Shown in pieces: positions 9,279-44,731 of a DNA stretch of 64,000 bases. Position numbers and translations under genes: made by a program. Origin of the DNA: Rhodothermales bacterium. Its GTDB lineage: Bacteria; Bacteroidota; Rhodothermia; Rhodothermales; VXPQ01. The DNA lies in the NCBI GenBank assembly GCA_022821845.1, contig JAJECT010000034.1:3038-67037 (forward strand), in the 5' to 3' direction. Within the stretch, counting starts at the first letter, position 1. The number at the start of each line of letters is the position of its first letter. The notes under the pieces are model-generated. The model made no database searches and was not told the DNA's origin. It was given only the letters and a program-made list of their open reading frames with translations.

Positions 9279-9364
9279 TCCGCAGCGCGGGCGGGCCGGA
9301 CGCTTTGCCACCGCGCAGGCGCCCGGCCCGCAAGCGCCCGTCGGTCCTGAACGCTTGCGATAGA

Positions 9365-29476: not shown

Positions 29477-29539
29477 TGATTGACATCCTTTCCACCGCCT
29501 GCGCGAGCCCAAACCCTTTCCAAGACAATTCATGAGATC

Positions 29540-31348
29540 ATGGAAGTCAAACTACGTAACCTCACTCACCTTTTCGTTCAACCGGGCCAGTACGAGATAC
29601 CGAGGTTCCAGCGCCCATACGTCTGGACCCGGGACAAACAGTGGATGCCGCTCTGGGAAGATGTTCAGCATATGGCGGAACGTATCCTCGCGGCACGACG
29701 CGACGGCTCCCCGCAACCTCAGCCCCATTTTATGGGTGCGGTGGTGCTGCAGCAGATTGCTAATGTAACCGGCTCGCTTCCGCGACGCATCGTAGTGGAC
29801 GGGCAACAACGCCTCACCACGCTCCAGCTTCTTCTCGACGCGGCGCAGGAAGTCTTTTTACGCAGGAATATCGCTGATCCTGCCGCCCGGCTTGAGGACT
29901 TGGTGTTGAACCAGCCGAAATACCAGCGTGGCAACGCGAACTACGCATTCAAGGTTTGGCCTACCGATTCAGACCAGGAGGCGTTTCGACATGCGATGGT
30001 CAATGGCTTGTCGGGAGGCGAATGGCCCAAATCGCGGATCGTACAGGCCCATGAATTCTTCAAGGATCAGGTAGACCAGTGGGTTGACGAAGAGGAGGGG
30101 CTGGATGCGGACGCGAACGAGCGAGCCGAGGCGCTGGAGGAAGTACTGTCGCAGCTATTGGAATTGGTTGTCATCGACTTGGGTGCATCGGATAACCCTC
30201 ATATCATTTTCGAGACCTTGAACGCTCGGGGCACGCCGCTTCGCCAGTCTGACTTGATGAAGAATATGATCCTGCACGAGGCAGAGAAAACCGGTATCGG
30301 CAAAAAAGTGACTTGGCCGTTCGAAGTTTCATGGTGGGATGAGGAAATTGAGCAGGGGCGACTCAGGCGCCCTCGCATCGACGTGTTCCTTAACTACTGG
30401 CTGGCGATGCGTATGCGCCGGGAAATTGTAGCTGCGGACGTGTTTTTGTCGTTCCAACGGTATTACGGAGGACAAGAACATGCCGCGATTAGCGACATTT
30501 TGGCTGATATCGCGAGCGTCAGTTTGGCCTATCGTCGCCTTGAAAAAGAGGAGCTGGACGGAGTGTGGGCGGCGTTTACTCCTCGCAGGAAAGTCATGCA
30601 AGCAGCCGTGGCGACCCCCGTTTTGTTGTGGTTGCTTTCGTCCCAAACGGAGCCGGACCAAGTATTCAGGGCCATCAAGGCACTGGAAAGCTATCTGGTG
30701 CGACGGATGGTGTGTCGTATGACCACCAAGAACTACAACAAGACGTTTATTGAACTCGTTCGGCGACTTGAACACGCTGGTCCGGCGACGGCAGGCGATA
30801 CAATCATTGAATTCCTCGGCGAACAGGAGGCGTACGCCACGCTTTGGCCCAACGACAATCTTGTGCTGGAAGCCATATCCAATAAGCCTTTGTACCGGCT
30901 ACTCTCGCGTAGACGAATGAGAATGGTCCTGGATGGGATTGAGGAGGCGCTCTGGACCACCAAATCCGAAGGCGGGCGGCGCCAAACTGCGTTGACGATC
31001 GAGCATATCATGCCGCGGAGCTGGCGGGGACACTGGCCAGAGCCAGAGCCGACGGACGGCCCCGAAGAACCAGATGAGAGGCGAAACCGACTGCTTGATT
31101 CGCTTGGCAATCTAACGCTCGTCACCCAGCCGTTGAATTCGTCGCTTTCTAACGGACCCTGGGCAGACAAGCGGAAGGGACTCCTGGGGCACAGTACGCT
31201 GTTTCTCAACAAGGACTTACTGGAGCATTTCCAGGATCATGTGTGGGACGAAGATGCGATCTACGCCAGGGCGGAGCGGCTGCATAGGGCATTTGTGAAG
31301 GCGTGGCCGCACGGCGCCGATATTGGCGCCGGATCCGCGACAGGTTAA
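29540..31348 (+). CDS. GmrSD-family type IV (modification-dependent) restriction endonuclease, DUF262 plus DUF1524
   Basis: N-terminal YEIPRFQRPYVW and VVDGQQRLTTL (ParB-like NTPase). C-terminal His-Me finger TIEHIMPRSW...LGNLTLVTQPLNSSLSN. The start is taken at ATG 29540; the ORF is open from 29480. Confidence 0.88.
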   Translation: MEVKLRNLTHLFVQPGQYEIPRFQRPYVWTRDKQWMPLWEDVQHMAERILAARRDGSPQPQPHFMGAVVLQQIANVTGSLPRRIVVDGQQRLTTLQLLLDAAQEVFLRRNIADPAARLEDLVLNQPKYQRGNANYAFKVWPTDSDQEAFRHAMVNGLSGGEWPKSRIVQAHEFFKDQVDQWVDEEEGLDADANERAEALEEVLSQLLELVVIDLGASDNPHIIFETLNARGTPLRQSDLMKNMILHEAEKTGIGKKVTWPFEVSWWDEEIEQGRLRRPRIDVFLNYWLAMRMRREIVAADVFLSFQRYYGGQEHAAISDILADIASVSLAYRRLEKEELDGVWAAFTPRRKVMQAAVATPVLLWLLSSQTEPDQVFRAIKALESYLVRRMVCRMTTKNYNKTFIELVRRLEHAGPATAGDTIIEFLGEQEAYATLWPNDNLVLEAISNKPLYRLLSRRRMRMVLDGIEEALWTTKSEGGRRQTALTIEHIMPRSWRGHWPEPEPTDGPEEPDERRNRLLDSLGNLTLVTQPLNSSLSNGPWADKRKGLLGHSTLFLNKDLLEHFQDHVWDEDAIYARAERLHRAFVKAWPHGADIGAGSATG

Positions 31349-31366
31349 ATCCGCCGCGTTTTTTTT
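31327..31366 (+). terminator. Rho-independent terminator after the GmrSD gene
   Basis: The stem cgccggat (31327-31334) pairs with atccg..gcg (31349-31358) with a CC bulge, and is followed by T8 (31359-31366). The stop codon lies in the loop. Confidence 0.5.
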
Positions 31367-31386
31367 GGAAACCCTTTGGCTTCTGC

Positions 31387-31416
31387 TTGACATTTCGATT
31401 CTAAATTTCGTATCAT
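31387..31416 (+). promoter_or_regulatory. Sigma70-type promoter, module copy B
   Basis: TTGACA (31387-31392), an 18-nt spacer, then TATCAT (31411-31416). Confidence 0.55.
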
Positions 31417-31424
31417 AGTGCCCA

Positions 31425-31740
31425 CCATCGGTTTTCAGTAAACATTCCATTCGGTACGGACCATGCCAGCCTCCTCCCCCGACAATCGGCCTATCATGCC
31501 GGAGGCGCTTGGACGTACCCGTAACCCGTTGGGGCACAAAGAAGAGCCCCCCCCCCTCGACTTTGTCCTGATCATTGGGCTCGCGGCGTAGCGCAAATTC
31601 TGTCGCTGACGCTTACGGGGTGTGTCAAAAGTAACACGGCGAATCGTGCGGTTCGCGGACGAAGCCGTTTGGTCCTGTTCTTCGCCGCAGCGCAAAGATT
31701 GGTACGCGATGTTTCTTGTCAATGCCCAATCCGAAACGCA
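31425..31740 (+). repeat. Conserved leader / candidate ncRNA module, copy B
   Basis: Indel-free alignment to 29161-29476. Confidence 0.9.
31463..31591 (+). CDS. Candidate 42-codon sORF inside module copy B
   Basis: Encodes MPASSPDNRPIMPEALGRTRNPLGHKEEPPPLDFVLIIGLAA, with the same start and stop register as copy A. Confidence 0.3.
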   Translation: MPASSPDNRPIMPEALGRTRNPLGHKEEPPPLDFVLIIGLAA

Positions 31741-32151
31741 ATAAAAATCCGAACCCTGTTTCTTGCGGCGGCCTTGATGCTGGCAGCCTGCGGACCTATG
31801 CAAGCGGAACGGCGGGAAGCGGACGCGCAAACGGATACCGTGTACTATTATAAACTTGCCCCGGTCCTTTCTCCTTGTCTTGATGCGTTCCGGCAAGCTT
31901 TGTATCCCGTAGCCGACTTATCCCTTTTCGTACCCCCTCCGGGGCATTCTGATCTTTTCCCGGCCTATTGGGCTTGCCGGACGCTTGACGAATGGACGGA
32001 AGCAAGCGAACGGTTTCCGGTGGTGTTGCAACTGGGCGGAGTAGACCCCGTTTGCTATGCGCTCAAAGTTTGCAACTGGGCGGCGGACGAACAAGAAGGC
32101 TACGCCGCCGCAATACAGGGTTCCCCGATATGCGAAGCGGTTGCGGTTTAG
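31699..32151 (+). CDS. Hypothetical lipoprotein
   Basis: Lipobox LMLAAC follows a K/R-containing n-region. It is Cys-rich with no recognised domain. The start is uncertain (TTG at 31699 or 31669) and overlaps the end of the module. Confidence 0.5.
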   Translation: MVRDVSCQCPIRNAIKIRTLFLAAALMLAACGPMQAERREADAQTDTVYYYKLAPVLSPCLDAFRQALYPVADLSLFVPPPGHSDLFPAYWACRTLDEWTEASERFPVVLQLGGVDPVCYALKVCNWAADEQEGYAAAIQGSPICEAVAV

Positions 32152-32207
32152 GCTACTTGTCGCTATTCCATTTTTTGTGCTCCATCCATTAACCCATCGG
32201 AAACGCT

Positions 32208-32669
32208 ATGTTTACGACAATCGTTATTATTTGCGTCATTTTCTGGCTTATCAAGAAAATGATCAATAGTTACGCGGATCACAACAGGAGAAAAGAGGGG
32301 GCATCAGGAACACCATTTGCGCGAGCATACTACGCACAGGCGCGGGCATTGTTTGCGGAAGGGGATTACGAATATCTTGAACGCGGTGTAACCACCAAGA
32401 AAGAAGATGCGGCGAGTGCTAAATACAATGCTGAGCGAGCGTGGAGTAAGGACAACGCTTCCTTTTTGCGGGAACAGACTCGCATGGCTCATTTACACGC
32501 CGCACGGGCGCAGGTAAACGCTTCGAACTGGCGGCATACGGAGAGAAAGAAAACCGACGTTCCGAAAGAACTGGCGAACAAGGCGGCGGTGGCGTGGGAA
32601 GAGGCGGCGGAAGCGTGGGAGGCGATTGCTGCGGATCACAAAACGAAGGAAAATGATGGAAATGCATGA
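32208..32669 (+). CDS. Hypothetical N-terminally anchored protein
   Basis: ATG start. TM helix FTTIVIICVIFWLI is followed by a helical, charged domain. Confidence 0.5.
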   Translation: MFTTIVIICVIFWLIKKMINSYADHNRRKEGASGTPFARAYYAQARALFAEGDYEYLERGVTTKKEDAASAKYNAERAWSKDNASFLREQTRMAHLHAARAQVNASNWRHTERKKTDVPKELANKAAVAWEEAAEAWEAIAADHKTKENDGNA

Positions 32670-33120
32670 ATCTTGGCCCTTGATTGTGGGCCTAGGGGCA
32701 GTAATGGGCATAAACCCCTTCGCCGCCGCGTTCGCTCTGGGGCTGGCTGGGGCAACGGGAACGGTTGATTTGCCGGGGGGTCTTGATGCGTTGCAAAAGA
32801 TCTGGGTAATCGTTCTTTCCGGCCTTCTGTATGGCGGGGAAGCGATTCTCGACAAGATTCCGGGCGTGGATACTGTATTTAACGCCATTGAAACCGTTGT
32901 TCGTGTGCCTGCGGCCAGCATGGCGGGCTATGCGGTAACGGGCGATCTGTTTGGAATCATGGCCGGGGGCATTTCGGGTACGACCCTTCACGGGTCAAAG
33001 ACACTTTTGCGTATCCCTATGACCGGTGCGCCGGGCCTTAACATACCCGTATCGTTTGGCGAAGACGCCGCCGTTTTTTATGCCCTGTGGTGGATGTGGC
33101 AACAGGGGTGGTTTGCATGA
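32653..33120 (+). CDS. DUF4126-like integral membrane protein
   Basis: Gly/Ala-rich helices LIVGLGAVMGINPFAAAFALGLAG and DKIPGVDTVFNAIETVVRVPAA fit DUF4126. It overlaps the upstream gene by 17 nt. Confidence 0.7.
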   Translation: MMEMHESWPLIVGLGAVMGINPFAAAFALGLAGATGTVDLPGGLDALQKIWVIVLSGLLYGGEAILDKIPGVDTVFNAIETVVRVPAASMAGYAVTGDLFGIMAGGISGTTLHGSKTLLRIPMTGAPGLNIPVSFGEDAAVFYALWWMWQQGWFA

Positions 33121-33228
33121 AAACGGCTTTCTCCTTCGGTTTTTGGCGGACGGGGAAAGCGGGATATCTTTGTGACGGGGCGAAAACCCGTTTCGCCTGA
33201 AACCTCACCAACAAAACCTCCGAATACA

Positions 33229-33456
33229 ATGGCACTTAAACCAGAAGATGCGAAATCCGATCAAATTTGTCTTTTTGTTGCGGGATGCACGGGCTGCAAA
33301 AAGCAGGACGTGGTAAAGAGTATAGGCGTTCAGTTTGGATCAATAGATACGCGTATAAACCTCGGCTGGATCGTCGATGCAAAAGACAATGTGCAAAAAC
33401 GCACCGAACTTTATGTTACGCATAAGTGGTTGCATCATGTGCGTGGCGGGCTGTAG
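33229..33456 (+). CDS. Small hypothetical protein with a CxxC motif
   Basis: 75 aa from MALKPEDAK, containing CLFVAGCTGC. No recognised family. Confidence 0.35.
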   Translation: MALKPEDAKSDQICLFVAGCTGCKKQDVVKSIGVQFGSIDTRINLGWIVDAKDNVQKRTELYVTHKWLHHVRGGL

Positions 33457-33705
33457 CATGCACTTCGAGAATTGCACACAATCCGGGCGGGCATACGCTC
33501 GTTTTTCCAGCGACCGACCTGCGTGAGGCCGGACAATTCCGTACCAGAGGGGGCAAGGTCCCCGGCCATGCCTATGCGGGCGGAATGCCCCGAAAATTCG
33601 CCATTGAAGTCAACGGTAGCACAGATAAGGAGGGGCACATCCACAATTCCCACGGGACGTTTTTCCCGTCCCCCGCCAAGACAACAGCATAATCAAGTTG
33701 TTTTT

Positions 33706-33733
33706 GTCAGATATTTCATATAATTTTTCTGAC
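33706..33733 (+). promoter_or_regulatory. Promoter with perfect -10 flanked by an inverted repeat (candidate autoregulatory operator)
   Basis: TATAAT at 33719-33724 is bracketed by GTCAGA (33706-33711) and TCTGAC (33728-33733). It lies 20 nt upstream of the DUF6088 start codon. Confidence 0.45.
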
Positions 33734-33753
33734 CAACCACGCAAAAAACCTTC

Positions 33754-34407
33754 ATGGCAACCACAGCAAGCGCCATACTGGAGCGAATCCGGCACCAGCG
33801 GGATCAGGTCTGGACGCCGAAAGATTTCCTGGACCTCGGCAAACGCGCTGCGGTTGACAAGGCCCTCTCTCGCCTTGTCGGCAGCGAAAAACTGCGGCGC
33901 ATAGGGCATGGACTGTACGACATGCCTCGATTCAATCCAATTCTGAAACGCTTCGCGCCGGTCAGCCTCAATGCTGCCATCGCCGCCATCGCCCGACGAG
34001 ACAACATACGCATCATGCCCGATGGCTCCGTGGCGGCGAACAGGCTTGGCCTGACCAACGCTGTCCCGGCCAAGCCGAATTATCTTACGGACGGCGGAAC
34101 GCGATCACTGATTGTCGATGGACGTATGATCTACCTGCGACACGCCGGACCCAAGGTAATGTACTGGACAGGCAACAAGCGAACCGGCCCGGTCGTTCAG
34201 GCAATTCGCTGGCTTGGCCCGCAAGCAGTCCAGGACGAGCAGGTCCTCTCCGCGCTAAAACGCCGCCTCCCCGATTCCGTGAAGCAGGATTTGGTGCGCA
34301 ACGCCCGCCATTTACCCGGATGGATCCTGTCTTTGGCGAATGAACTCGTGGACAATCCGCCCGATGCCCCCGCAACGCGATGCGAGAAGCATTCAGGAAA
34401 TTTATGA
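33754..34407 (+). CDS. DUF6088 / AbiEi-like antitoxin-family protein
   Basis: ILERIRHQRDQVWTPKDFLDLG...VDKALSRLVGSEKLRRIGHGLY is the wHTH N-terminus of AbiEi/DUF6088 proteins. No AbiEii nucleotidyltransferase follows. Confidence 0.8.
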   Translation: MATTASAILERIRHQRDQVWTPKDFLDLGKRAAVDKALSRLVGSEKLRRIGHGLYDMPRFNPILKRFAPVSLNAAIAAIARRDNIRIMPDGSVAANRLGLTNAVPAKPNYLTDGGTRSLIVDGRMIYLRHAGPKVMYWTGNKRTGPVVQAIRWLGPQAVQDEQVLSALKRRLPDSVKQDLVRNARHLPGWILSLANELVDNPPDAPATRCEKHSGNL

Positions 34408-34442
34408 ATTTGTACAGTAAGGACTAAACCGACGGCCTCTCT

Positions 34443-34706
34443 CTATTGTTTTTGTGCTCCTGCCAAGAAAGCAGCGTACTTGGTTTTGCCCTCAGTAAAG
34501 GAGGAGGGAATCCGTTCGCCATACTTGAGTTTGACCATCAGGAACCCCTTTACTGCATCTTTGGCGTTCTCGAACGCTTCCTCTTTTGTATCCCCAGGCA
34601 TATGCAGGCCGGGCAAATCAGGGCAGTATGCGTGAAACCCATCTTCGTCAGGTTCAATTATGATTGGAACCTCGAAAATGGTGTCGTTGGGGTGCATGGT
34701 ATTCAT
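34443..34706 (-). CDS. hicB: HicB-family antitoxin (UPF0150-type)
   Basis: FEVPIIIEPDEDGFHAYCPDLPGLHMPGDTKEEAFENAKDAVKGFL is the HicB N-terminal fold signature. The start is set at MNTMHP. Confidence 0.8.
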   Translation of the reverse strand: MNTMHPNDTIFEVPIIIEPDEDGFHAYCPDLPGLHMPGDTKEEAFENAKDAVKGFLMVKLKYGERIPSSFTEGKTKYAAFLAGAQKQ

Positions 34707-34783
34707 CTTTTTATTTCCGTTATTGCATTGTCGATAGCAGGGCTGCAATCGCTGCGTCCCCATCCTTATGCAGAAACATGGTC

Positions 34784-34812
34784 AGGATACCAAATATTTT
34801 GAGCGATAGCAA
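34784..34812 (-). promoter_or_regulatory. Candidate promoter for hicB
   Basis: On the minus strand TTGCTA (34812-34807), a 17-nt spacer, then TATCCT (34789-34784). Confidence 0.35.
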
Positions 34813-35042
34813 AAAAGGCGAAGCGCCTCGTTGCGCCGATCCAGAAACCCCTTCCTGTCTCCGCACCCGTCCCGGCTTCAATTCCCCCCTCCCTGTAACC
34901 AATCCCCAAACAAATCCGTATGTAATCAGACCCCCCGGCGGCAGCCCTCCCGCAAATCCGACCCCAAACCCCTCCAGGCGCCATCCGTCCTTTGCGAAAA
35001 AATATCAGGGAACGCTTTGTCCAGACAGGCTCTGTGCTTGGC

Positions 35043-35219
35043 ATGGCCGCCGCCTTGGCGCTCTATATTTTCCTTGCCTTTCTGGCCTGCGAAGGGTTGC
35101 GGACGGTCCTTTCTGAGCATTTTGGCGTAGATATGCCTTGGTATGCGTTCATTCTGGCGATGATCGTCGTTTTGCTACTCATCATGCCCGGAAAACGCCG
35201 CCGCCGAAGGGCGCCGTAA
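35043..35219 (+). CDS. Possible small two-helix membrane protein
   Basis: MAAALALYIFLAFLAC...WYAFILAMIVVLLLIM followed by KRRRRR. Support is weak (hydrophobicity pattern only). Confidence 0.3.
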   Translation: MAAALALYIFLAFLACEGLRTVLSEHFGVDMPWYAFILAMIVVLLLIMPGKRRRRRAP

Positions 35220-35265
35220 TCCGCCGCTGTCCTGCGCTGAAACGACCCTGGCAAACGTTCGGTTT

Positions 35266-35532
35266 TCAAGACGCCACTGGCGCTTTCCCCACCGGATACC
35301 CTGTAGCGAGGGATGGCCACCGCATGTCGTTCAGCCGTGATCGCAGTTGAGTGGCTTTCTTCGCTACGTCTGGATACTGCTCCCGATACGCCTTGGCGAC
35401 ATCGTCCAGTACATCCAGCAAAAAAACCAGTTCATCTTCTGCCGCCAATTCAATCTGTCCGACGGCAATCCGAGGATCTTTCCGAAATTCTCCCCGAAGC
35501 CATTCGAAGTGGTCTACGCCCATGTTGCTCAT
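35266..35532 (-). CDS. Antitoxin-like protein, copy 2 (paralog of 36914..37273)
   Basis: MSNMGVDHFEWLRGEFRKDP... is about 65% identical to copy 1, with a single-codon in-frame indel. The N-terminus resembles addiction-module antidote proteins that follow killer toxins. Confidence 0.55.
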   Translation of the reverse strand: MSNMGVDHFEWLRGEFRKDPRIAVGQIELAAEDELVFLLDVLDDVAKAYREQYPDVAKKATQLRSRLNDMRWPSLATGYPVGKAPVAS

Positions 35533-35603
35533 GGTCCTTATGGTTTGGTTATTCCGTGTCTTGATTTCCAGTCCTGGAGACGTTTTTTCGCTGTGGCGAC
35601 GTC
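35290..35603. repeat. Segmental duplication, lower copy (antitoxin gene plus the last ~63 nt of the toxin gene)
   Basis: Aligns to about 37028-37344 (offset 1738-1741) at roughly 80% identity. Confidence 0.8.
35538..35603 (-). pseudogene. 3' remnant of a RelE/ParE-type killer toxin gene
   Basis: Encodes DVATAKKRLQDWKSRHGITKP-stop, homologous to the C-terminus DIATAKKRLRDWKARHGKTRH of the intact toxin at 37270..37620. Homology ends 5 nt from the stop codon of the 433-aa gene. Confidence 0.6.
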
Positions 35604-35608
35604 GCCAG

Positions 35609-36910
35609 TCAACCCTGCAAGGCGGCAATACTTTCGATCAATTCCTGAAAGTCGGGGTCCTCGCGCAAGTTCGGGCCGGTCCGAACGGGGGTATTCGAAA
35701 GGGGGGGCCGTCGAAGAGGCGTTGCAAAGCGTAGCCATCCATTCCTGCGTTGTGGTTGATCCCCTGCGATCTGCGGTTGGCAGGGACGGTCCAGCCCGGC
35801 CGTTTTGATGCCTCGCTTGATTTCTTGCGCCCGCCAATGGTTCAACATGATGGCTTTCCCGAACCCACATTCCGGTCCAAGTTGCGCGGGCAGCACAGCC
35901 TCATAGGGACGAGGCGACCCGGCCTCGGCGACCAGGAGTTTGAGCGTTGACGCCAGGCGCTTCGCTGGATCCGGCCAGCAGATGAATTCCGGCCACCCCG
36001 TATCGGCCAGGGAAAAGTCTACGACAAGCAGCCGCAGATAATCCGGCGAGGGCGCGCCGCACGGGCGTTTCTGTAATTCGCCCAACAGTTTACGCCCCCA
36101 CTGGCTCCGGGCTGTGCTTTGGGGCGTTCCAAAGTGGTCGAAAAACATTCTGGCTTCGGCTGATCGCATGGATGTATGTTGCGTAACAATACGATACGCC
36201 GGATCGGGATGCAGGGTGTCGATCGTTACGCGCAAGCGGAGCGATGCCGTGGCGTCTTGAAACAAACGCTCCTCTCCCGCTTGCGCACGGGGAATCCATG
36301 CTGCGGCTTCTTCTCTCAACGCAGCAAGCCACGCGCGGACAAGATTTTCGCGCATAGCGTCGTCGAAGAATAAATCGTCGTCGTCCTCCTTCTCCTCATC
36401 CTGACGCAGGCTTTCGAGGCGGAGCGTTATTTCAAACCCCGTATCGACTTCAAGGTACTTGAATGTCATGCCCAGATAGCGCCCGACCAATTGGCAACCG
36501 AAAAAATCCGCAGGACAATAGACCTCGACGCGCATACGCGACGAACCGGCGGTCAGTTCGATGTCGCCGCGCCTGGTTTCCGGCGGGGCGGAAGCCGGTT
36601 GCGCATGCTCTGCTCCGAATACGCCCTGAAGATGCGCAAGCAAATTGAATTCCGACAGCGCTCGGTGGAATGGCAACAGGTCGGTTTGTTCGACTACGCG
36701 CTTGCCGATGCTCCCGGATGCGGTAAGATGGTCGTCTATAAAGGCCAGCAACGCCTCGATATGCTCGTACTGCGCGTTCCCAAGCAGGCGGACAATTTCC
36801 AGTTCGCTTCGACCGGATTCGGGCAGTTTGCCCCTTATTCGTTCCGCAATGCGCGGGAAACGCTCCAGGACGTTCTGGACTTCGCTGGTGATCGGATACC
36901 GAATGGCCAT
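35609..36910 (-). CDS. Hypothetical 433-aa protein, no recognised domain
   Basis: Long ORF with an ATG start 4 nt after the upstream antitoxin stop. It contains an acidic block QDEEKEDDDDLFFDD and a possible nuclease-like segment RGDIELT...RVEVYCP (speculative). Confidence 0.7.
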   Translation of the reverse strand: MAIRYPITSEVQNVLERFPRIAERIRGKLPESGRSELEIVRLLGNAQYEHIEALLAFIDDHLTASGSIGKRVVEQTDLLPFHRALSEFNLLAHLQGVFGAEHAQPASAPPETRRGDIELTAGSSRMRVEVYCPADFFGCQLVGRYLGMTFKYLEVDTGFEITLRLESLRQDEEKEDDDDLFFDDAMRENLVRAWLAALREEAAAWIPRAQAGEERLFQDATASLRLRVTIDTLHPDPAYRIVTQHTSMRSAEARMFFDHFGTPQSTARSQWGRKLLGELQKRPCGAPSPDYLRLLVVDFSLADTGWPEFICWPDPAKRLASTLKLLVAEAGSPRPYEAVLPAQLGPECGFGKAIMLNHWRAQEIKRGIKTAGLDRPCQPQIAGDQPQRRNGWLRFATPLRRPPLSNTPVRTGPNLREDPDFQELIESIAALQG

Positions 36911-36913
36911 GTC

Positions 36914-37273
36914 TCATCCTGTGGTTTCCACTGCCGTAGGTTGGGTTTGACTCCTGCGACGACGAGCGTGGCGCAGGCCCGTCGCGGCGGCTTGTTTGTC
37001 AAGGCCTTGTTCCGGTAACGTTTTCCGCACCGGATAGCCTATAGCGAGAGACGGCCACCGCATGTCGTTCAGCCGCGCCCGCAGCTGAATGGCTTTCTTC
37101 GCTACGTCTGGATACTCCTCCCGGTACGCCTCGGCGATATTGTCCAAGGCGCGCATAAGAATAACCAGCGCCTCTTCTTCCGCCGCCACGTTCAGATAAC
37201 CGGTGGCGAATTCCGGGTCTTTCCTTAATTCTCCCCGAAGCCATTCGTAGTGGTCTACGCCCAAGTTGCTCAT
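36914..37273 (-). CDS. Antitoxin-like protein, copy 1
   Basis: Its start overlaps the toxin stop (ATGA). Sequence begins MSNLGVDHYEWLRGELRKDPEFATGYLNVAAEEE. Confidence 0.6.
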   Translation of the reverse strand: MSNLGVDHYEWLRGELRKDPEFATGYLNVAAEEEALVILMRALDNIAEAYREEYPDVAKKAIQLRARLNDMRWPSLAIGYPVRKTLPEQGLDKQAAATGLRHARRRRSQTQPTAVETTG

Positions 37274-37344
37274 GATTTTGCGGTGTTATGTCTTGTTTTC
37301 CCGTGTCTCGCCTTCCAGTCCCGCAGTCGCTTTTTCGCTGTGGC
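37028..37344. repeat. Segmental duplication, upper copy
   Basis: Counterpart of 35290-35603. Confidence 0.8.
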
Positions 37345-37620
37345 GATGTCGGCGCGTTGTGTTTTCTTGCTACCTGCGCACAAAAGCAAAATGACTGTTT
37401 TCCCTGCGCGAGCGAAGTATACGCGATATCCGGGGCCATAATGGATACGCAGTTCCCGTATTGTCCCGCCTACTGCTATGCAGTCGCCGAAATTGCCTTC
37501 CGCAAGACGGTCAAGCCGCGTTGCAATTCGCTCTCTGGCTCTCGGGTCCCGAAGATCATCCAGCCACCGCTGCACCGGATCGCGTGCATTTTCCGTAGTG
37601 TAATGCTGGATATCGAACAT
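37270..37620 (-). CDS. RelE/ParE-superfamily addiction-module killer toxin
   Basis: YTTENARDPVQRWLDDLRDPRARERIATRLDRLAEGNFGDCIAVGGTIRELRIHYGPGYRVYF matches the killer-protein family that precedes HigA-like antidotes. Confidence 0.85.
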   Translation of the reverse strand: MFDIQHYTTENARDPVQRWLDDLRDPRARERIATRLDRLAEGNFGDCIAVGGTIRELRIHYGPGYRVYFARAGKTVILLLCAGSKKTQRADIATAKKRLRDWKARHGKTRHNTAKS

Positions 37621-37773
37621 CCGCTATCCTTTCCTGAAACACGCCCGGGCCGCTCTGGATCCGGGGAAATGTTCCGTCCGTGCATAAAAAACTGTCCTCC
37701 TTTAGACAAAGAAACCTGGCGAATATAACCTCGCGCCCCGCCGTTTTTTTCGGAGCGCTTCCCCCCGCCGCCC

Positions 37774-39246
37774 CTAAAAATACTTTTGCACCACTTCTTC
37801 GGGCTGCCATTGGTCCGGCTTGCGGACGATCTCCGAATAATCGAACTCCATGGACACGTGCGTTTCGGAGGTCAGAGGGTGCGGGTCGCCCGCCTCCTCT
37901 TGCGCGGACCGCAGAAGCGTCATCAGGCGTTCCTGCTCCTCGGCGTACGCCGGATCGTCCGCAAGATTCCGCAACTCCCAGGGGTCCGCCTCCAGGTCGA
38001 AAAGCTGCGTGTAGTGGATTTTGGGATACCGGATGAGTTTCCACCGATCCTCCACTATTGACCGATGCAGGTCTTCGTAGGCCAGGAAAAGGCGCTCCCG
38101 GAAGGCCGAACGCTCCCCCTTCCACAGCGCGGACAAATCCTGCGCGTCCACATCGGCGGGCGCCTCGACCCCGGCCAGGCCCAGCACGGTGGCGAACAGA
38201 TCGTGCAAATACACGAGGGCGTGGGTTTCCCCCTGCGGAATGCCCGGCCCCTGCACGACGAGCGGCGTTTTGGCGCTATGTTCGTACAGATTCTGCTTGC
38301 CGAGCAGGCCATGCCGCCCCACGGCCAGTCCATGATCGGACGCAAACACGACAATGGTGTTTTCGGCCAGGCCCTGCACATCGAGTGCGTCCAGAATCCG
38401 CCCGATTTCCTCGTCCATGTGCGTAATAAGCCCGTAGTATTCGGCCAACTGGTCGCGGATGACGTTCGCGCGGCGCGGCCAGGCGGCAAGGATTTCGTCC
38501 CGGACCGTCATGCGCCCGTTGTCGAACGGATGCACGGGCAAATAATTGGGAGGCAGGGGCATGCCCGATCCGGCGTAGTCCGCCGCATGGCTGGCCGGAG
38601 GCGTCCGGGGATCGTGGGGCACGGTGAAGGACACATAGGCCAGAAAAGGGGCCGCCCGATCCGATGCGCCGTAGTCCTCAAGGAAATCCACCGCCGCATC
38701 CGCGAACAGGGTCGTGGAAAAACCCTTCATGACAGGTTCCGAAAACGTCCCGTCCGCCTGCAAATCCTGTAGCCGGATGCTGAAATGATTGGCCATTCCC
38801 CCGATGAACACGGCGCTGCCCTCTCCGAAACTGCGCGCGAAAGACGAGCGGCTCTGGTGCCATTTGCCCGTGCCGAAGGTCCGGTAGTCCGCCTCCCGAA
38901 GGATTTCCGGGAACGTGCGCACGGAATCCAGATTGTCGTACACGCGGAACAGGGTGCGTCCGCTCATCATCATGGCCCGGCTGGGCGCGCAGACGGCCCC
39001 ATGGTGGGCGCCCATGTTGTAGGTTCGCCGGAAGGAGTACCCGTCCTCCACGAGACGGTCCAGGTTCGGCGTACGAATATAGCCGTTGCCGTACGCGCCG
39101 ATGGCGTCGGCTTGCAGATCGTCGGCCAGAAGGAACAGGATATTCGGGGCGGAACCGTCCGAATCGGTATCGGAATCCACCGAACAGGATGCCGCGAAGG
39201 CGGCGAGGAATGCGAAAACGCCAAGGCGCAGGAAAAAAGGGTGCAT
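37774..39246 (-). CDS. Sulfatase (Cys-type), lipoprotein
   Basis: PNILFLLADD, the CAPSRAMMMSG formylglycine motif, and lipobox AASC. Confidence 0.9.
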   Translation of the reverse strand: MHPFFLRLGVFAFLAAFAASCSVDSDTDSDGSAPNILFLLADDLQADAIGAYGNGYIRTPNLDRLVEDGYSFRRTYNMGAHHGAVCAPSRAMMMSGRTLFRVYDNLDSVRTFPEILREADYRTFGTGKWHQSRSSFARSFGEGSAVFIGGMANHFSIRLQDLQADGTFSEPVMKGFSTTLFADAAVDFLEDYGASDRAAPFLAYVSFTVPHDPRTPPASHAADYAGSGMPLPPNYLPVHPFDNGRMTVRDEILAAWPRRANVIRDQLAEYYGLITHMDEEIGRILDALDVQGLAENTIVVFASDHGLAVGRHGLLGKQNLYEHSAKTPLVVQGPGIPQGETHALVYLHDLFATVLGLAGVEAPADVDAQDLSALWKGERSAFRERLFLAYEDLHRSIVEDRWKLIRYPKIHYTQLFDLEADPWELRNLADDPAYAEEQERLMTLLRSAQEEAGDPHPLTSETHVSMEFDYSEIVRKPDQWQPEEVVQKYF

Positions 39247-39365
39247 GGTGCGATGCGGTCAGGTCTGGAAAGGGGGGCAATGCGTGTCAGAGAGGGAGGA
39301 CATGACAAAATATCATTTTCGGGAAAATTCCTGGACGAAAACCGGGTCGGCGGGCGTTTTCACGG

Positions 39366-40379
39366 TCATTTCTTCGTAATAAGACCAGCGGCGGCCCGTC
39401 CCCGCGCCGTGAGGCGGTATTTCTGATTTCTTGCCGTGGGCGCGTCGGGATGGGTCATTTCCACCAGTCCGGCGTCCAGCGCGGGCCAAATGTAGTTGTT
39501 GCGAAACGTCGGCCGGTGGGAGAGGCCAAGCGCCCCCATGAGTGCGCGCGCGGACCTGGGACCGCCTTGCAACCCTTCGATTAGACGCGCTACTTGGTCG
39601 GTTGCATGATCGCTTTCTTGGTCGGTCTCCCCGCAATCCAGCACCGCCTCAAGAATAGCCTCCAGCATATAGACGATAAACGGGGTGCTTTCCCCTTTCG
39701 AAGAACTTTCCCGAATGGCCTCATAGTACGCGCTTTGCCGCGCATAAACGAGGCTTTCCACCGGCACGTCGGCGAACAGGGACTTCCAGCGCGTCAGGAT
39801 CAGCGTTTGCCACAGCCTGCCCATGCGCCCGTTGCCGTCCTCGAAAGGATGAATAAACTCGAATTCGTAGTGGAATACCGAACTGGCGATCAAGGGATGT
39901 TCGTCGGCGCTGTCCAGCCAGGCAAGGAGATTCGACATGAGGCCTGGTACGAGGTGGGTGGGCGGCGCGATATGCTGCACTTTGCCGCCGCCGAATACCC
40001 CCACGCCGCGGCGCCGGTACTGTCCGGGGGCGTCGAGCAGCGCCGTCATGAGCATCCGGTGCGCCGTGAGCAAGTCGTCCTCGCTTGCGGGGTTCCACTG
40101 CGGGAACTGGTCGTAGACCTTGATGGCGTTGCGCGCTTCCTGGACTTCCCGCAAGGGCGCGATGACCGGCTTGCCGTCGAGAATGGTCGAAATCTCGTCC
40201 TAGCTGAGCGTATTCCCTTCGATCGCCAGCGAGCCCTGGATGGCGCGGATGCGGTTGATCCGCCGCAGACGCAAACTCATCGGCTGCGCGACGGCCTCCG
40301 CGCGGCCGATGGCTTCGCCGATCTGCGCGACCAGGTCGAGAATGGCGGGGATGATGGCGTATGGCGGCGCGGTACTCAT
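39366..40379 (-). pseudogene. Fic-domain protein interrupted by one in-frame TAG (40200-40202)
   Basis: ORFs 40200..40424 and 39366..40154 are in the same frame. The read-through gives ...SLAIEGNTLS*DEISTILDGKPV..., then the Fic motif HPFEDGNGRMGR and a C-terminal wHTH. Confidence 0.8.
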
Positions 40380-40398
40380 GAACGTGGCAGACAGACGA

Positions 40399-41646
40399 TC
40401 AGAAGATGTCCTCTCGCCCTTCATGCGGGGACGGCTTCGCCCAGATGGTCAGGCGCAGTTCCTCGCCGAATAGTTCGTATTCGGGTCGTCGCCCGGAATG
40501 CGCTTCGCTGGCTTCAAGTATGCCGCGTACGCCCTCGCCCCTTGATTCCAGAAATGCGCGTCCAGTGTGGCGGCTCTTCATTCGGGACAGGAAATTCACC
40601 AGGAGTTGATTCCGGGTGAAAACGCGGTATGGCATTGTTTTGATCGAAAGCGTATTGGGCAACGATCCTGGACTGTATATCTCCATCCTGTCCGCGAAGA
40701 GAAATAGTCTGATCTTTCCGCCGGAAATCGAGTAATCGCGGTGAGCGACGGCATTCACAATGGCTTCGTGTACGGCGTTCGGCACGTACTGGGGATGATC
40801 CTCGCGTCCGGCGTTCTTGCGTGCAGGCCTCAGCATGAATCGATCAACAAACTCGGCAGCGTCATCAATCTGTTCATTTGCCGGACCCCTGATCGACTCG
40901 GCGTGCACCAGGTCGTCGGACGTAAGGCGTGTTCCGCGGTATACTGCCGCCTCCACGAACGCCGAGGGCAAGTGCTTGTCCGGCGTTGCGCCGAATGCCA
41001 ATAGTCCGGCAACAGTAGGTTGTGCGACGTTGTTATCGCTTGTTTCTACGACACGCGTATTTCGCAGGAGATCAAGCCACGGTATCAGGGTGGGGCCGTT
41101 CGCGAAAAATTCCTTCAGGCGGCGGTCGTCAAGATCGTCAACCGTTGCCGTGGGAACGCGTTTCTCATCGAAAACGAATGTTCGTCCGCGCTCTTGAAAG
41201 AGGCGAGCCAGAGCGGCGCCTTTAAGCAATTGTTTCGTCGCGCCAACCCGGATGTAGTGACGTCCGCTACTTGTGCCATGAACGTACAGTCCGCGCTTTA
41301 CTTCCACCAGGATTACGAGGCGTTCCGAATTGCCTGGGTCGGCCAGTCGCTCCTTGCGGAGAATCGGGTGAATAGGAGGATCGCAATTGTTGTTGGCGAT
41401 GTTGATGGCCCAAGACTCCACCACGTTCGCACGGTCCGGCGGAATGCCGCGCACAACGCCGTCATCGTCCACGCCTAAAAAAATCACTCCCCCCTCGGCG
41501 TTGGCGAACGCGACCATTTCGCTTGCCATTTCCTCGGTGTTTGGAGAACGAACGCCGTGAGTGCGCAAATCGACCTGCTTAAACTCAGCCCTTGCATCCT
41601 CCAGGGCCTCTAACTGTCGTCTAATTTCGTCTAAAGTGTCGAACAT
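40399..41646 (-). CDS. AlbA_2 (Schlafen-like) DNA-binding domain plus HATPase_c_4-type protein
   Basis: N-terminal EDARAEFKQ...MVAFANAEGGVIFLGVDDDG pattern and C-terminal EAIVNAVAHRDYS. It lies 16 nt after the upstream ATPase gene. Confidence 0.8.
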   Translation of the reverse strand: MFDTLDEIRRQLEALEDARAEFKQVDLRTHGVRSPNTEEMASEMVAFANAEGGVIFLGVDDDGVVRGIPPDRANVVESWAINIANNNCDPPIHPILRKERLADPGNSERLVILVEVKRGLYVHGTSSGRHYIRVGATKQLLKGAALARLFQERGRTFVFDEKRVPTATVDDLDDRRLKEFFANGPTLIPWLDLLRNTRVVETSDNNVAQPTVAGLLAFGATPDKHLPSAFVEAAVYRGTRLTSDDLVHAESIRGPANEQIDDAAEFVDRFMLRPARKNAGREDHPQYVPNAVHEAIVNAVAHRDYSISGGKIRLFLFADRMEIYSPGSLPNTLSIKTMPYRVFTRNQLLVNFLSRMKSRHTGRAFLESRGEGVRGILEASEAHSGRRPEYELFGEELRLTIWAKPSPHEGREDIF

Positions 41647-41662
41647 GTGCGCAGGGCTTGTT

Positions 41663-44600
41663 TCAGTAACCGTAGCGTTCCCGTCTAAGCCGAAATGCCT
41701 CGGCGCTTCCTTCCATGATTCTGCTGACGTGGTTCTTCACGTCCGGGCGGTCGATGCTACCGGCGCTAATGACCTTGCCTAACCGATTTTTCGCTCCGAG
41801 CGCCACAATCAGCTCGGCATCCCCGTTCACGGGAATATTGGCGTTGTGGGTGACGATAATGACCTGCCGGGAAAATTTGCGTCTTCGCAGCAAGTCTACA
41901 ACCACATTGTAGACGTACTGGTTGTCCAGGTCGTCTTCCGGTTGGTCGATGATAATCGGCTGGTCGCCGGCGGATAGAAGCAGGCTCAGGATCGCAGTAC
42001 TTTTCTGTCCAATGGACCCGGTCTCAATTGTCTTGAAAGCGCCATCGTCCGTCCTGACCTGCGCTTCAATGCGATCCTCTGGAAGAAAACGTTCTATTTC
42101 GTCGATCCTGATGCGTTCCCGTCGTTCAAGGGCATTGAGAAAGTTTTTGGTCAATTGTGCATTCGGACCAACAAGGGCGACAACCTTTGATGCGGATGCT
42201 TCAATAGCGGCGCCCTTGTCGGTTGTAGCCCCCAAATCTTCGCGGATCGCCTTTGCAAGGTCTGCAATACGGTCAGGCACGACGCCATTCGGTGCGAAGA
42301 CGTGCTCGCAAAGCGCCGTCCAGTCGCGTTCTTGTACTCCCGCGCCGCCGAACCAATGCTCGCGACGCGACTCGAAGTCCCCCCGATCCCGAAATGCATA
42401 AACCTCCAGGCGGACGTCGGCATCCATATCTTCGAGCGCCTTCGCCTGTTCCAGGCGTGCCGCCAAACGCGCTTTATGCGTTTCGACAAGTCGTAAACGC
42501 GTCTCGCCAAGATTACGTTCAATGTCGCTGAGTTCCTGATCAGTTTTCTGGAGCGTTTCCAATTCGCGCTCCAGTTGCGCCCTGCGCTGAAGCAGCTTCT
42601 CGTGCTGGGCGAAGTCTACGCCTCGTTCAACCATCTCTTGTCGTAGCGCATCGTATTCAGCGTGCGATTTGTCGTAATCCGCCTGCCACTTTTCGGCTGT
42701 TTCCTGTTTGATTGCGGTGGCCAGGGCTCGCAAGGAATTCGCTTCTTCTCGCAATGCCGCCGCAGCGCCGTTGCATGCGGTTGCCACGCGGCCGGCTACC
42801 GAATCAAGCCAGGTTGTCGTTGGGGTCGATTTTGGAACCCCGCGAGCACCCGAGTCGTCCTGTTCAACCACACCGGCCTCCTCATCAAGTCGGGCAGCGA
42901 TTTCGTTCAAGTCTTTCTGGATACTTTCCAACCAGCGGCGCTCTCGCTCGAAGGCGTCGAATCGTTGCAATACTTCCTTGCGCCCTTCGCTTTCAAGAAA
43001 GCCGATCTGGTCGCATATCTTTTTTAGTTCGGTCTTGATGGAGGGGTATTTCCGACGTTGCTCCTCAAGCCGCGAACGCGTTGTCTGAAACTGTGCGAGC
43101 TTCTCTCCGTGCGACCGGCGCAGGTTCTCGATCTTGCGCAGACGGTCGGGGTCGATCAGGGCATCGAGTTCGGTACGCTGCGATGCGGGATTGCGGGCGA
43201 TACGCGCTATCTGGCGCTGCGAAAGAATGCGCGGCACGATAAGACTGCGCACGTCCAACGCTGCCGGCGCGGCGTTGGGTTGGTTTGCGTCCGGGATGAC
43301 CGTAAGACCGTTCGCTGATCGGCGAACAAGGTAATGGCGCTCGGCCACCACCAGGTCGATATCCATTTCGTAATCGGGGAGCAGCGTACCCCTGGAGTCT
43401 CCGAAGTCGCGTTCTTTCTTCGACAAGAGCAGGGGGTGCACCTGATCGCGGATATCACTGGTCTCGTGGTTGCGCAGGTCTTCGCTGCGAGCGCGATCCA
43501 GTGTGTGGCGCAGGTATTCGACAACAGTAGACTTTCCCGAGCCGCGACCGCCGATAAGCGTCGTAAGGCATGCGTTGAAAGGCACGTCGATATCCTCAAA
43601 GAAGTCCGTGCATCGGACACGCAAGCGCTTGATTCTGGTATAATGTTGTCCCGGGGGGCCTTCCGTCATGCGGCGCAGCCGGGATTGCGGGTCAAGCAGG
43701 GCGAGCCGGATCCCCTCTACGTCCGGGACTTCCATCTTGAGCCAACTGTAGCGACTGCCGATGGCCTCATAATTGTGCGGGTCCGAGCCCTCAACGAGTG
43801 GCCAATGGCCCTGATTCCGTACCCCTTGCCGACGAGACGTTGGCAACTTGTCCCAATCTTCGCCCTGTTTCGCAACCGTCCATTGGCACAGGAGGTCCTG
43901 AAAAGCCTGTGGTAATCTTTCGAAAGGCCGGGTCGTTTCAAAACCGTTCCATTCCGTGCGCGCAACCGCCCACTGCCTCAGGTGTCCCTTCATTTCGTCC
44001 CAAAGGTTGGCGGCAACACCAGACTTGTCAGCTCCGGTTTCTTTGGCGACTCCGCGATTACCGTCAGCATGGGCCGGCAGCAGCACGAAACTCAGGTTCC
44101 GCTTGCCCGTCGCAGGTTTTGCGTACTCGTAGAGCTTTTTAAGAAAATCATTGAGCGATTCGCCCGTTGCAAGGGGTGTTCCTGTCGTTGAATTGAAGCA
44201 TTCTCGCGCCTGAAAAACATGGCGGATAACCCCTTCTATATCGGCGGGCTCGGTATCGGATGCAAAGATGACAAGGAAGTGGATGGGGCGCTCCCCCCCG
44301 ACGCTAAACTCTACCGCGGGCAAGATCGCAGGCATAGCCTTGCCTTCGTTCTTCGCGCGCGTCTCGATTTTCTGAAACAGCGGTTTGAGCTGTTTGAAGC
44401 CTTCAATGCTGTTATGGTCCGCGAGCGCGACGAGGTCCATACCGTTCCCGTCATCGGCCGATTGGCAGGCCCCGACGAAACGTTCGGCAATCTCTTCAAG
44501 GCGCGTGGAGTCGCCCTGCGTCAGGGCAGCAATAGCTCCGCGTATATCCCCTCCGAATCTCTTTTCGCCATCGAAAGGAGTGTGTACGTGCAGATCGCAA

Positions 44601-44731
44601 CGCAACCAACGGGCGCCGGGTTCGACATGCGTTGTAGTCAATTCAGTTATCTCGCTGTAAGTGTCAAAAATAGTGGCGTACAAGGCGCTATACCGGATTG
44701 CAGGGCGCTCTGCGCTTGGTATCCACACCAT
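41663..44731 (-). CDS. PHP phosphoesterase fused to an SMC/Rad50-like ABC ATPase with coiled-coil insert (Ppl-like)
   Basis: PHP motifs CDLHVHTPFD and ADHNSIEG. Walker A GGRGSGKST. A long E/R/L/Q-rich coiled-coil segment. SIGQKSTAILSLLL, Walker B PIIIDQPEDDLD, and VTHNANI. Confidence 0.8.
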   Translation of the reverse strand: MVWIPSAERPAIRYSALYATIFDTYSEITELTTTHVEPGARWLRCDLHVHTPFDGEKRFGGDIRGAIAALTQGDSTRLEEIAERFVGACQSADDGNGMDLVALADHNSIEGFKQLKPLFQKIETRAKNEGKAMPAILPAVEFSVGGERPIHFLVIFASDTEPADIEGVIRHVFQARECFNSTTGTPLATGESLNDFLKKLYEYAKPATGKRNLSFVLLPAHADGNRGVAKETGADKSGVAANLWDEMKGHLRQWAVARTEWNGFETTRPFERLPQAFQDLLCQWTVAKQGEDWDKLPTSRRQGVRNQGHWPLVEGSDPHNYEAIGSRYSWLKMEVPDVEGIRLALLDPQSRLRRMTEGPPGQHYTRIKRLRVRCTDFFEDIDVPFNACLTTLIGGRGSGKSTVVEYLRHTLDRARSEDLRNHETSDIRDQVHPLLLSKKERDFGDSRGTLLPDYEMDIDLVVAERHYLVRRSANGLTVIPDANQPNAAPAALDVRSLIVPRILSQRQIARIARNPASQRTELDALIDPDRLRKIENLRRSHGEKLAQFQTTRSRLEEQRRKYPSIKTELKKICDQIGFLESEGRKEVLQRFDAFERERRWLESIQKDLNEIAARLDEEAGVVEQDDSGARGVPKSTPTTTWLDSVAGRVATACNGAAAALREEANSLRALATAIKQETAEKWQADYDKSHAEYDALRQEMVERGVDFAQHEKLLQRRAQLERELETLQKTDQELSDIERNLGETRLRLVETHKARLAARLEQAKALEDMDADVRLEVYAFRDRGDFESRREHWFGGAGVQERDWTALCEHVFAPNGVVPDRIADLAKAIREDLGATTDKGAAIEASASKVVALVGPNAQLTKNFLNALERRERIRIDEIERFLPEDRIEAQVRTDDGAFKTIETGSIGQKSTAILSLLLSAGDQPIIIDQPEDDLDNQYVYNVVVDLLRRRKFSRQVIIVTHNANIPVNGDAELIVALGAKNRLGKVISAGSIDRPDVKNHVSRIMEGSAEAFRLRRERYGY

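Follow-up and report, generated by a model that had tools for sequence, protein, structure and literature searches.

Toxin-antitoxin (TA) operons with a third gene are the closest described relatives of the locus reported here. In the toxin-antitoxin-chaperone (TAC) systems, HigB1-HigA1-SecB(TA) of Mycobacterium tuberculosis (Rv1955-57) and HigBAC of Escherichia coli C496, the third protein is SecB-like. HigB1 has been placed in the gp49 family (PF05973), ribosome-dependent mRNases with a toxin-first gene order (PMC11980606). Three-part TA systems with a separate regulator also exist (PMC8630535). Our subject is a window of 64,000 nucleotides, the whole stretch of DNA analysed, from a Rhodothermales bacterium (assembly GCA_022821845.1, contig JAJECT010000034.1). 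On its minus strand, a toxin gene (T) and an antitoxin-like gene (A1) precede a 433-amino acid (aa) open reading frame (ORF) that we call X. The stump of a second toxin gene (t') and a second antitoxin copy (A2) follow; A denotes the antitoxin family. Comparison loci are numbered L001 upwards. No description of such a T-A-X module, or of the X family, turned up in the literature searched. We propose that T-A-X is a three-gene operon acting as one unit, followed in the window by the stump of a second unit, and that X, coupled to A, serves as an effector or sensor with a nuclease fold. Our confidence in this proposal is about evenly balanced. The parts are listed below.

37621-37732, minus strand: leader and putative promoter region of the T-A-X operon, about 110 nt, kept between two chromosomal sites
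37620-37270, minus strand: T, intact toxin of 116 aa, HigB1/gp49-type RelE/ParE (TIGR02683, PF05973, PHROG 3445)
37273-36914, minus strand: A1, full-length antitoxin-like protein of 119 aa with partial antidote homology; its start overlaps the T stop
36910-35609, minus strand: X, 433 aa, third gene and long form of an uncharacterised family, defined by its homologue set and an AlphaFold2 (AF2) model
35606-35538, minus strand: t', non-coding remnant of the 3' end of a second toxin gene, 22 codons plus stop, equivalent to T residues ~90-111 and the stop
35532-35266, minus strand: A2, truncated antitoxin copy of 88 aa at the 3' end of the array, with A homology through residue 83

An earlier note on this DNA had read the same five genes and remnants in this order, and all were found.

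T, A and X as a conserved unit

T is a bona fide RelE/ParE toxin and, by the curated cut-off, a member of TIGR02683. The match spans positions 4-95 of 95 (E 2.1e-34, 117.8 bits against a cut-off of 62.85). T also matches Pfam PF05973 Gp49 (E 8.5e-8, 32.6 bits, cut-off 23.9) and PHROG 3445, 'toxin' (E 1.5e-31). The nearest solved structure is that of HigB1, the M. tuberculosis TAC toxin (7nbu/7awk, E 4.5e-4). Judged solely by homology to HigB1, T presumably mediates ribosome-dependent mRNA cleavage. Relatives of T occur in 930 plasmid records. In the three that we inspected, a gene of ~105 aa lies directly 3' of the toxin; two of these genes are annotated 'addiction module antidote protein'. 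These examples share with T-A1 the toxin-first order; in the window, the T stop and A1 start overlap as ATGA. As a separate observation, the toxin gene of L036 (4293-4620) has a short internal duplication near its N-terminus (…DYTTEVQGYKTEVQHYTTE…).

Neither A1 nor A2 had an NCBIfam or Pfam match (E<=1). Hence, the genes following the toxin in the three plasmid-borne T relatives were taken for comparison. Aligned with these canonical TIGR02683 partners, the A family scored a probability of 93% (E 3.2e-7, 57 columns, hhalign) over A residues 5-62 only. The profile alignment ends at the first helix of the helix-turn-helix (HTH). In place of the HTH stands the motif YRE(E/Q)(Y/H)PD(V/I)..K.A..LR.RLNDMRWP(S/T)LA.GY, near-invariant in all copies. 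Among 12 homologues, 40 of the 119 A columns are invariant. The AF2 model of A1 has four helices (4-70), of which 55-70 is one continuous helix, and the predicted local confidence (pLDDT) is <50 from residue 84. The tail, residues 84-119, is disordered, basic, arginine-rich and polar. Foldseek and PDB profile searches gave no relative of A. A is thus only a partial member of the TIGR02684-type antidote family, having the N-terminal helices (..R.DP.FA..YL..) but no match to the family model. Because antidote homology stops at the first HTH helix, and a near-invariant motif occupies the place of the HTH, A appears to be a remodelled, HTH-less descendant of the usual antidote. Its position and homology suggest that A neutralises T.

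Long-form X proteins comprise ~420-435 aa and are 57-93% identical. We examined such loci at L001/L007, L002-4, L006, L008, L009, L036, L037, L038, L042 and L043. At every readable locus A lies directly before X, with a stop/one-codon/ATG junction, and T or a T stump lies before A. In the window the single codon between the A1 stop and the X start is GAC, and the two genes are in the same frame. T-A-X was found in about ten Rhodothermales assemblies, at two chromosomal sites. Most loci occupy a site between genes for an Rce1-like protease and a glyoxalase, syntenic in related Rhodothermales metagenome-assembled genomes (MAGs). The other site, that of the window and L006, lies beside a sulfatase gene. 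At single-unit loci, which number eight or more, nothing TA-like follows X. The carriers are uncultured, mostly sponge-associated MAGs.

A leader of ~110 nt can be aligned between the sulfatase site (window, L006) and the Rce1/glyoxalase site (L001, L002, L009, L036, L037). Since it is common to both, the module seems to have moved as a unit with its own leader. The leader carries a palindrome-like element, CCGGATCC(A/G)G (CCGGATCCGG), and is a putative promoter or operator. Rfam gave no credible match in the region. The constant A/X junction at all long-form loci examined, and the occurrence of the unit at two sites with its own leader, support the earlier suggestion that X is a third component of the module.

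Two further observations concern the Rce1/glyoxalase site (L001, L002, L009, L036, L037, L042, L043). Between collinear flanks, X alleles differ by <=43% in protein, with a synonymous divergence (dS) of 0.3-0.85. This suggests recombinational allele replacement or long-lived polymorphism. A conserved, convergent ORF of 146-151 aa, with no Pfam match, lies after X.

Some loci have lost T. In L008 the leader runs directly into T residue 58, and in L038, L042 and L043 into residue 85; T was deleted on at least two independent occasions. A and X are intact in L008, L042 and L043, with a ratio of non-synonymous to synonymous substitution (dN/dS) of 0.28-0.5. In L038, X is cut by an insertion sequence (IS). 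The leader is retained in L038, L042 and L008. Deletions of T with A-X kept, together with an array at L006 where one T serves several copies of A and X, show that A-X outlives T.

A tandem array of diverged cassettes

A repeat search matched 35281-35604 to 37019-37351 in three collinear blocks of 77-82% identity, spaced by 1738-1747 nt. The repeat is far above chance level. The two copies of toxin 3' end plus antitoxin align over ~330 nt with a single in-frame codon indel (MAFFT). Homology to T begins 5 nt past the X stop. The stump t' has no start codon, is out of frame relative to X and is 81% identical to 37290-37351. Its translation, GDVATAKKRLQDWKSRHGITKP followed by a stop, most closely resembles the C-terminal end of the toxin in L006.

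A sister genome has the same sulfatase-flanked locus, L006, whose flanks are ~90% identical. There the array runs T-Aa-X'-t'-Ab(truncated)-(final ~15 codons of an X)-t'-Ac-X-t'-Ad. The window and all three L006 copies share one junction from the X stop to t' (…TTGACTGGCGAC(A/G)TCGCCACAGCGAAAAA…). One L006 copy of t' has an in-frame stop. Because the junction is reiterated inside the L006 array, we interpret t'-A2 as the start of the next tandem t'-A-X unit. The unit measures ~1.75 kb, and the window contains a full unit behind the sole complete toxin plus the first 0.35 kb of the next. The 5' part of its toxin would already have been lost when the unit multiplied.

These data change the picture drawn from the window alone. 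The earlier note had placed X exactly between two copies of a TA unit, as if inserted, and had X replacing most of the second toxin. Instead, the flanking copy opens the next tandem unit. In most T-A-X loci X is not followed by t'-A, and the X-stop/t' junction occurs three times in L006. Two antitoxin copies, whose alignment contains one in-frame codon indel, are present as described, but A2 is a truncated copy. Past residue 83 it has no homology to the A family, and the ~35-residue tail of full-length A is absent. Over those 83 aa, A2 is 94% identical to L006 Aa and 83% identical to L006 Ad. A2 and Ad end at the same point (GRAPMVS versus GKAPVAS).

The proposed coding constraint on both antitoxins was upheld. 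By the Nei-Gojobori method, dN/dS was 0.40 for A1 versus A2 and 0.17-0.19 for A2 versus its closest L006 relatives. Pairwise values among antitoxin copies of the window genome and L006 were 0.17-0.59. Hence, the copies evolved as coding sequence, and both window copies are under purifying selection.

The cassettes are mosaic: the toxin 3' end (T or t') and the N-terminus of the following A vary together in type, and the types stand in opposite order in the window and L006. A block that takes in the C-terminal half of A and roughly 60 initial codons of X is 85-97% identical between otherwise diverged units.

We considered other origins for this structure. A diversity-generating retroelement was rejected: no reverse-transcriptase signature is present in X, and the repeats differ by ordinary codon substitutions, at a dN/dS of 0.2-0.6. 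Integron-like or att-site insertion of a cassette at the toxin 3' end is only remotely possible. There is no recombinase nearby, no inverted repeat and no attC-like structure. A single deletion or duplication, copied afterwards, accounts better for the X/t' junction. Programmed read-through to an A-X fusion is unlikely, though A and X are always in frame and one codon apart, because the stop codon varies between TGA and TAA among the loci, and L006 Aa ends earlier.

Just downstream of its array, L006 has an extra 2.4 kb relative to the window (L006 8076-10459; window 34840/34816). This includes a 458-aa ORF (8956-10332, minus strand) with no Pfam match.

The X family and its surroundings

X has 54 close homologues, none of them annotated. 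A profile search of 1.84 billion representatives recovered 228 clusters at 50% identity, mostly of 360-410 aa. The family, with proteins of about 380 aa, spans several phyla, with members in Rhodothermales, Latescibacterota, Gamma- and Deltaproteobacteria and Gemmatimonadetes. X had been described as having no domain that could be named, and it indeed had no match in Pfam, NCBIfam, PADLOC or PHROGs, nor in the plasmid collection. PDB sequence profiles gave no relative. Ten distant members had no credible Pfam match at E<=0.1. When 88 members were run against PADLOC-DB v2, no model was matched by more than two (best E 0.003). By these searches, X appears to belong to no described family.

The AF2 model of X (pLDDT 81.4, predicted TM-score 0.81) has a helical N-terminal domain, a core (78-167), a C-terminal alpha/beta domain, a disordered linker (381-413) and a terminal helix (419-432; DPDFQELIESIAALQ). 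The core runs alpha-beta-beta-beta-alpha-beta: helix 78-96, three strands, helix 138-151 and a strand. It contains the residues of a PD-(D/E)xK-like unit: E87, D116, E129-x-Y131, P133 and Q140. E87 is on the first helix, (P)D opens strand 2 and E-x-(Y) is on strand 3. These are the catalytic positions of PD-(D/E)xK enzymes. Across 88 diverse members, E129 is conserved in 100%, P133 in 98%, E87 in 94% and D116 in 88%; position 116 is otherwise E and is preceded by P in 53%. A 'D...E-x-Y' motif, guessed at in the earlier note, is the most conserved feature of the family. In Foldseek searches of the PDB, local matches of ~50 columns (rmsd ~2.2 Å) to Hjc and VRR-NUC had E>1 and probability <=0.44. 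The best VRR-NUC match in the viral library BFVD had E 0.37 and probability 0.87. The top lists, all non-significant, comprise mostly Hjc resolvases, VRR-NUC, N.BspD6I and restriction endonucleases. We read X as having a nuclease-like core with putative activity.

The C-terminal domain contains a conserved polar set in the same 88 members: R240 (95%), S250, K278 (97%), Q283 (97%) and D337. It has no recognisable relatives. A P-loop kinase or zeta-toxin-like fold was considered. The leads were Clp1/Grc3 (E ~1, PDB profile) and zeta/PezT, guanylate kinase and PPK2 (E>0.7, TM<0.2, Foldseek). Walker A residues are absent and the match was lost with a deeper profile, so this candidate was rejected.

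A DDPDFxELxxSIxxLQ C-terminal tail is found only in the TA-linked X clade. Tail residues 414-429 (window 35624-35671; NLREDPDFQELIESIA) were aligned with the N-terminal motif that is best conserved among antidotes, at A1 residues 15-30 (ELRKDPEFATGYLNVA), at E 0.03 and a probability of 1.6% (hhalign). If this likeness is real, X could bind T via an antitoxin-like peptide. The tail was also considered as the missing C-terminal helix of an antidote gene split by insertion. It did not align there, and matched the N-terminal 'R.DP.F' weakly instead. For X, dN/dS is 0.2-0.5. X and X' of L006 are 60% identical, both intact, with dN/dS of 0.36-0.39.

The family lies mostly outside TA operons. Short-form X, which lacks the terminal linker and helix, is found in Latescibacterota, Gamma- and Deltaproteobacteria and other phyla. 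Neither a T nor an A relative was found near it, and there was no constant partner gene. Hence, adjacency of X homologues to this antitoxin family, once suggested as a check, holds at all readable long-form loci and fails for the short form. For the earlier idea that X might be a new toxin which has captured the antitoxin, these lone short forms count against, and the intact A-X of L008, L042 and L043, where T is deleted, counts in favour. One short-form X lies in a BREX locus (L020 740-11155 / L021), between genes for a PglX-like methyltransferase and PglZ. The insert there consists of an AAA_15/AAA_21 plus DUF4276 PARIS-like pair, then X and, overlapping the X stop with its start, the gene for an 800-aa protein without a Pfam match. 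Elsewhere, a RhuM-family gene precedes short-form X, and ResIII/DEAD helicases or an MNT-HEPN pair follow it. It also occurs near GmrSD and in TA-rich islets. Two homologues are interrupted: at L014 (4000-6915) X is split by a DDE_Tnp_1_4 transposase, and at L038 (5355-6308) an rve-family element truncates X after 141 residues. The family is covered by no current library. With BREX, PARIS-like genes, GmrSD, helicases and MNT-HEPN as neighbours, X is a reasonable candidate defence gene.

The module in the window is likewise surrounded by a defence and TA island (29480-44731). Its other genes are as follows.

29480-31348, plus strand: GmrSD
32626-33120: DUF4126
33754-34407, plus strand: DUF6088/AbiEi-like gene
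34443-34763, minus strand: orphan HicB-like antitoxin with no HicA adjoining
37774-39246, minus strand: sulfatase
39366-40154, minus strand: Fic/DOC protein
40399-41646, minus strand: Schlafen/AlbA_2 plus HATPase_c_4 protein
41663-44731, minus strand: SMC-like SMC_N/AAA_21 ATPase of 1022 aa

Possible working of the unit and its likeness to known systems

If T-A-X acts as one unit, its history and working might be as follows. In a Rhodothermales lineage, X would have gained a C-terminal linker and helix and become fixed behind T-A. The segment comprising toxin 3' end, A and X would then have multiplied in tandem, with cassettes diverging and recombining. X would be translationally coupled to A. 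The N-terminal domain of A would neutralise T, as in the parent family. The conserved C-terminal part of A, the X-specific tail, or both, would tie X to the complex. X would be a second, nuclease-type effector or a sensor, silent until infection or loss of A. The layout would then be toxin-antitoxin-toxin, A-X being arranged antitoxin first, as is usual. From the new C-terminal part of A, the tail of the TA-linked X clade and the tight translational coupling, we infer physical association of A with X, or of T with X. A role in defence or addiction would be consistent with this arrangement.

Several points weigh against this proposal. Short-form X stands without an adjacent T or A, so X is not obligatorily antitoxin-dependent. 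Among the 88 members, the lysine of (D/E)xK gives way to Y in 80% and to F in 12%; the canonical catalytic motif is absent and, since tyrosine takes the place of the lysine, catalysis by X is not assured. K278 might substitute for that lysine in space. No significant structure or sequence match indicates a function for X, the best Foldseek hits having E 0.05-0.6 and a whole-protein TM <0.2. The X of the window carries K278E and Q283P. K and Q occupy these positions in 86 of 88 family members, and the 93%-identical copy in L006 retains them. The window protein may be attenuated or inactivated. Linkage at the Rce1/glyoxalase site is probably largely vertical, because this is one syntenic site in related genomes, and independent support for linkage comes from two loci only. 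Finally, the order of events in the array is not reconstructable, because the cassettes are mosaics.

A bolder version, which we offer as a doubtful extension, makes A-X an effector-inhibitor pair. Here, an HTH-less HigA-type descendant would serve as an adaptor restraining both a HigB1-type mRNase and a 'PD-ExY' nuclease-fold protein. The diverged t'-A-X arrays would be a specificity reservoir, recombinable behind a single promoter and toxin head. Stand-alone short-form X would be a single-gene anti-phage family.

If the proposal of a coupled T-A-X unit is true, a large nuclease-fold protein would be a third kind of third component in type II TA systems, beside chaperones and regulators. Similarly, an antitoxin family would have been remodelled from a DNA-binding repressor to something else. 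The cassette array and the repeated loss of T with A-X kept form a natural series on the dispensable parts of a TA module.

Four other explanations were weighed. In the first, X has the role of the SecB-like chaperone of TAC. It would bind the disordered A tail, shield A from proteolysis and sense infection; once X is titrated or triggered, A would be lost and T would stop translation. X would not be an effector. The nearest solved relative of T is indeed the TAC toxin HigB1, and toxin, antitoxin and third gene follow one another as in TAC. A disordered C-terminal extension of ~35 residues is present in full-length A and absent from A2, and the clade-specific tail of X is present only when X is linked to T-A. 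However, X shows no SecB similarity (no Pfam match); it is large, has two domains and contains conserved acidic residues that look catalytic. The elements of the chaperone addiction domain (ChAD) of TAC antitoxins are hydrophobic and aromatic, whereas the A tail is arginine-rich and polar. Retention of intact A-X after deletion of T makes little sense if X serves control of T alone, and short-form X exists without TA genes. We think this explanation unlikely.

The second explanation, which we rate as improbable, supposes no functional link. X would be an independent defence-island gene co-inherited with T-A, and the tandem copies would reflect neutral unequal crossing-over in the decaying island of an uncultured symbiont. 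The many neighbours of short-form X, with no constant partner, fit this, as does the synteny of most T-A-X loci, i.e. their vertical inheritance. Signs of decay are also evident in the T deletions, the IS in X (L014, L038), the truncated A copies and the K278E/Q283P changes in the window. Yet the A-stop/one-codon/ATG junction is kept at 57-93% protein identity, and the unit, leader included, is present at two unrelated loci. Only the linked clade has the X tail. A was remodelled, losing the HTH and gaining a conserved motif, in the T-A-X context only. The repeated unit always keeps A with X.

Thirdly, X might be a regulator. A has lost the HTH, and X would supply operator binding and autoregulation, like PaaR2 or omega, with its core a catalytically inert DNA-binding module. 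A matches antidotes only as far as the first HTH helix, and the module carries along a conserved leader with the CCGGATCCGG palindrome. Tyrosine stands in place of the (D/E)xK lysine, and inactive nuclease folds often act as DNA binders. Regulators encoded separately in three-part TA systems provide a precedent (PMC8630535). Against this, known third-component regulators have ~70-120 aa and are encoded first; X, of 433 aa, comes last in the operon. Conservation of E87, D116 and E129 is 88-100% in a family mostly outside TA operons, a pattern more in keeping with an active site than with operator reading. The A tail, rich in arginine, could itself bind nucleic acid. We regard this role for X as quite improbable.

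Lastly, that an orphan X landed between tandem T-A modules, deleting most of the second toxin and taking A2 as its dedicated antitoxin, is exactly what the window alone depicts and would accord with purifying selection on A2, but it is very improbable and already appears contradicted by the comparative data: at least eight T-A-X loci have nothing TA-like after X, the X-stop/t' junction is reiterated within one array, A2 is truncated and lacks the conserved family tail, and the constant, fixed-spacing partner of X is the upstream A.

Comparison with described systems places the module as follows. The PD-(D/E)xK defence nucleases (Hjc/VRR-NUC, N.BspD6I-type, Shedu SduA and Hachiman HamA) resemble X in predicted core, conserved acidic positions and defence-island setting. 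The differences are that X has no significant match to them, has tyrosine for the motif lysine and has an extra conserved C-terminal domain. The arrays recall orphan cassettes of contact-dependent inhibition (CDI) and Rhs systems, whose orphan toxin-immunity arrays lie downstream of the CDI/Rhs loci. In both cases, tandem diverged cassettes are each preceded by a 3' fragment of the upstream gene. Recombination shuffles a cassette beside a single full-length head gene; likewise, T/A types are swapped between the window and L006. However, T-A-X proteins are of intracellular TA type, not secreted, and the fragment is a toxin 3' end rather than a conserved pre-toxin region. The comparison also yielded no sign of cassette switching. 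The likeness thus seems to be one of form only.

Like paaR2-paaA2-parE2 and omega-epsilon-zeta, T-A-X combines an antitoxin without a DNA-binding domain and an extra operon protein, and it shares a RelE/ParE-superfamily toxin with the paaR2 system only. Their extra protein is a small DNA binder encoded upstream, whereas X is large, encoded last and has catalytic-type residues. Among TIGR02683/TIGR02684 killer/antidote pairs, of the HI1419/HI1420 type common on plasmids, T is a member, and A residues 5-62 are homologous to the antidote. Unlike those antidotes, A reaches no model and lacks the recognition and C-terminal HTH helices. It has a new conserved motif and tail, and a third gene is fixed downstream.

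TAC shares with T-A-X the gp49/HigB1 toxin family, the toxin-antitoxin-third gene order, a disordered antitoxin C-terminal extension and a plausibly anti-phage setting. It differs in that the third gene here encodes a 433-aa protein of nuclease-like fold and not a SecB-like chaperone, the defining feature of TAC. Furthermore, A has no complete HTH, its tail is basic and seems unlike ChAD, and T-A-X forms tandem cassette arrays. In toxin family, gene order and antitoxin extension, TAC is the system to which T-A-X is closest.

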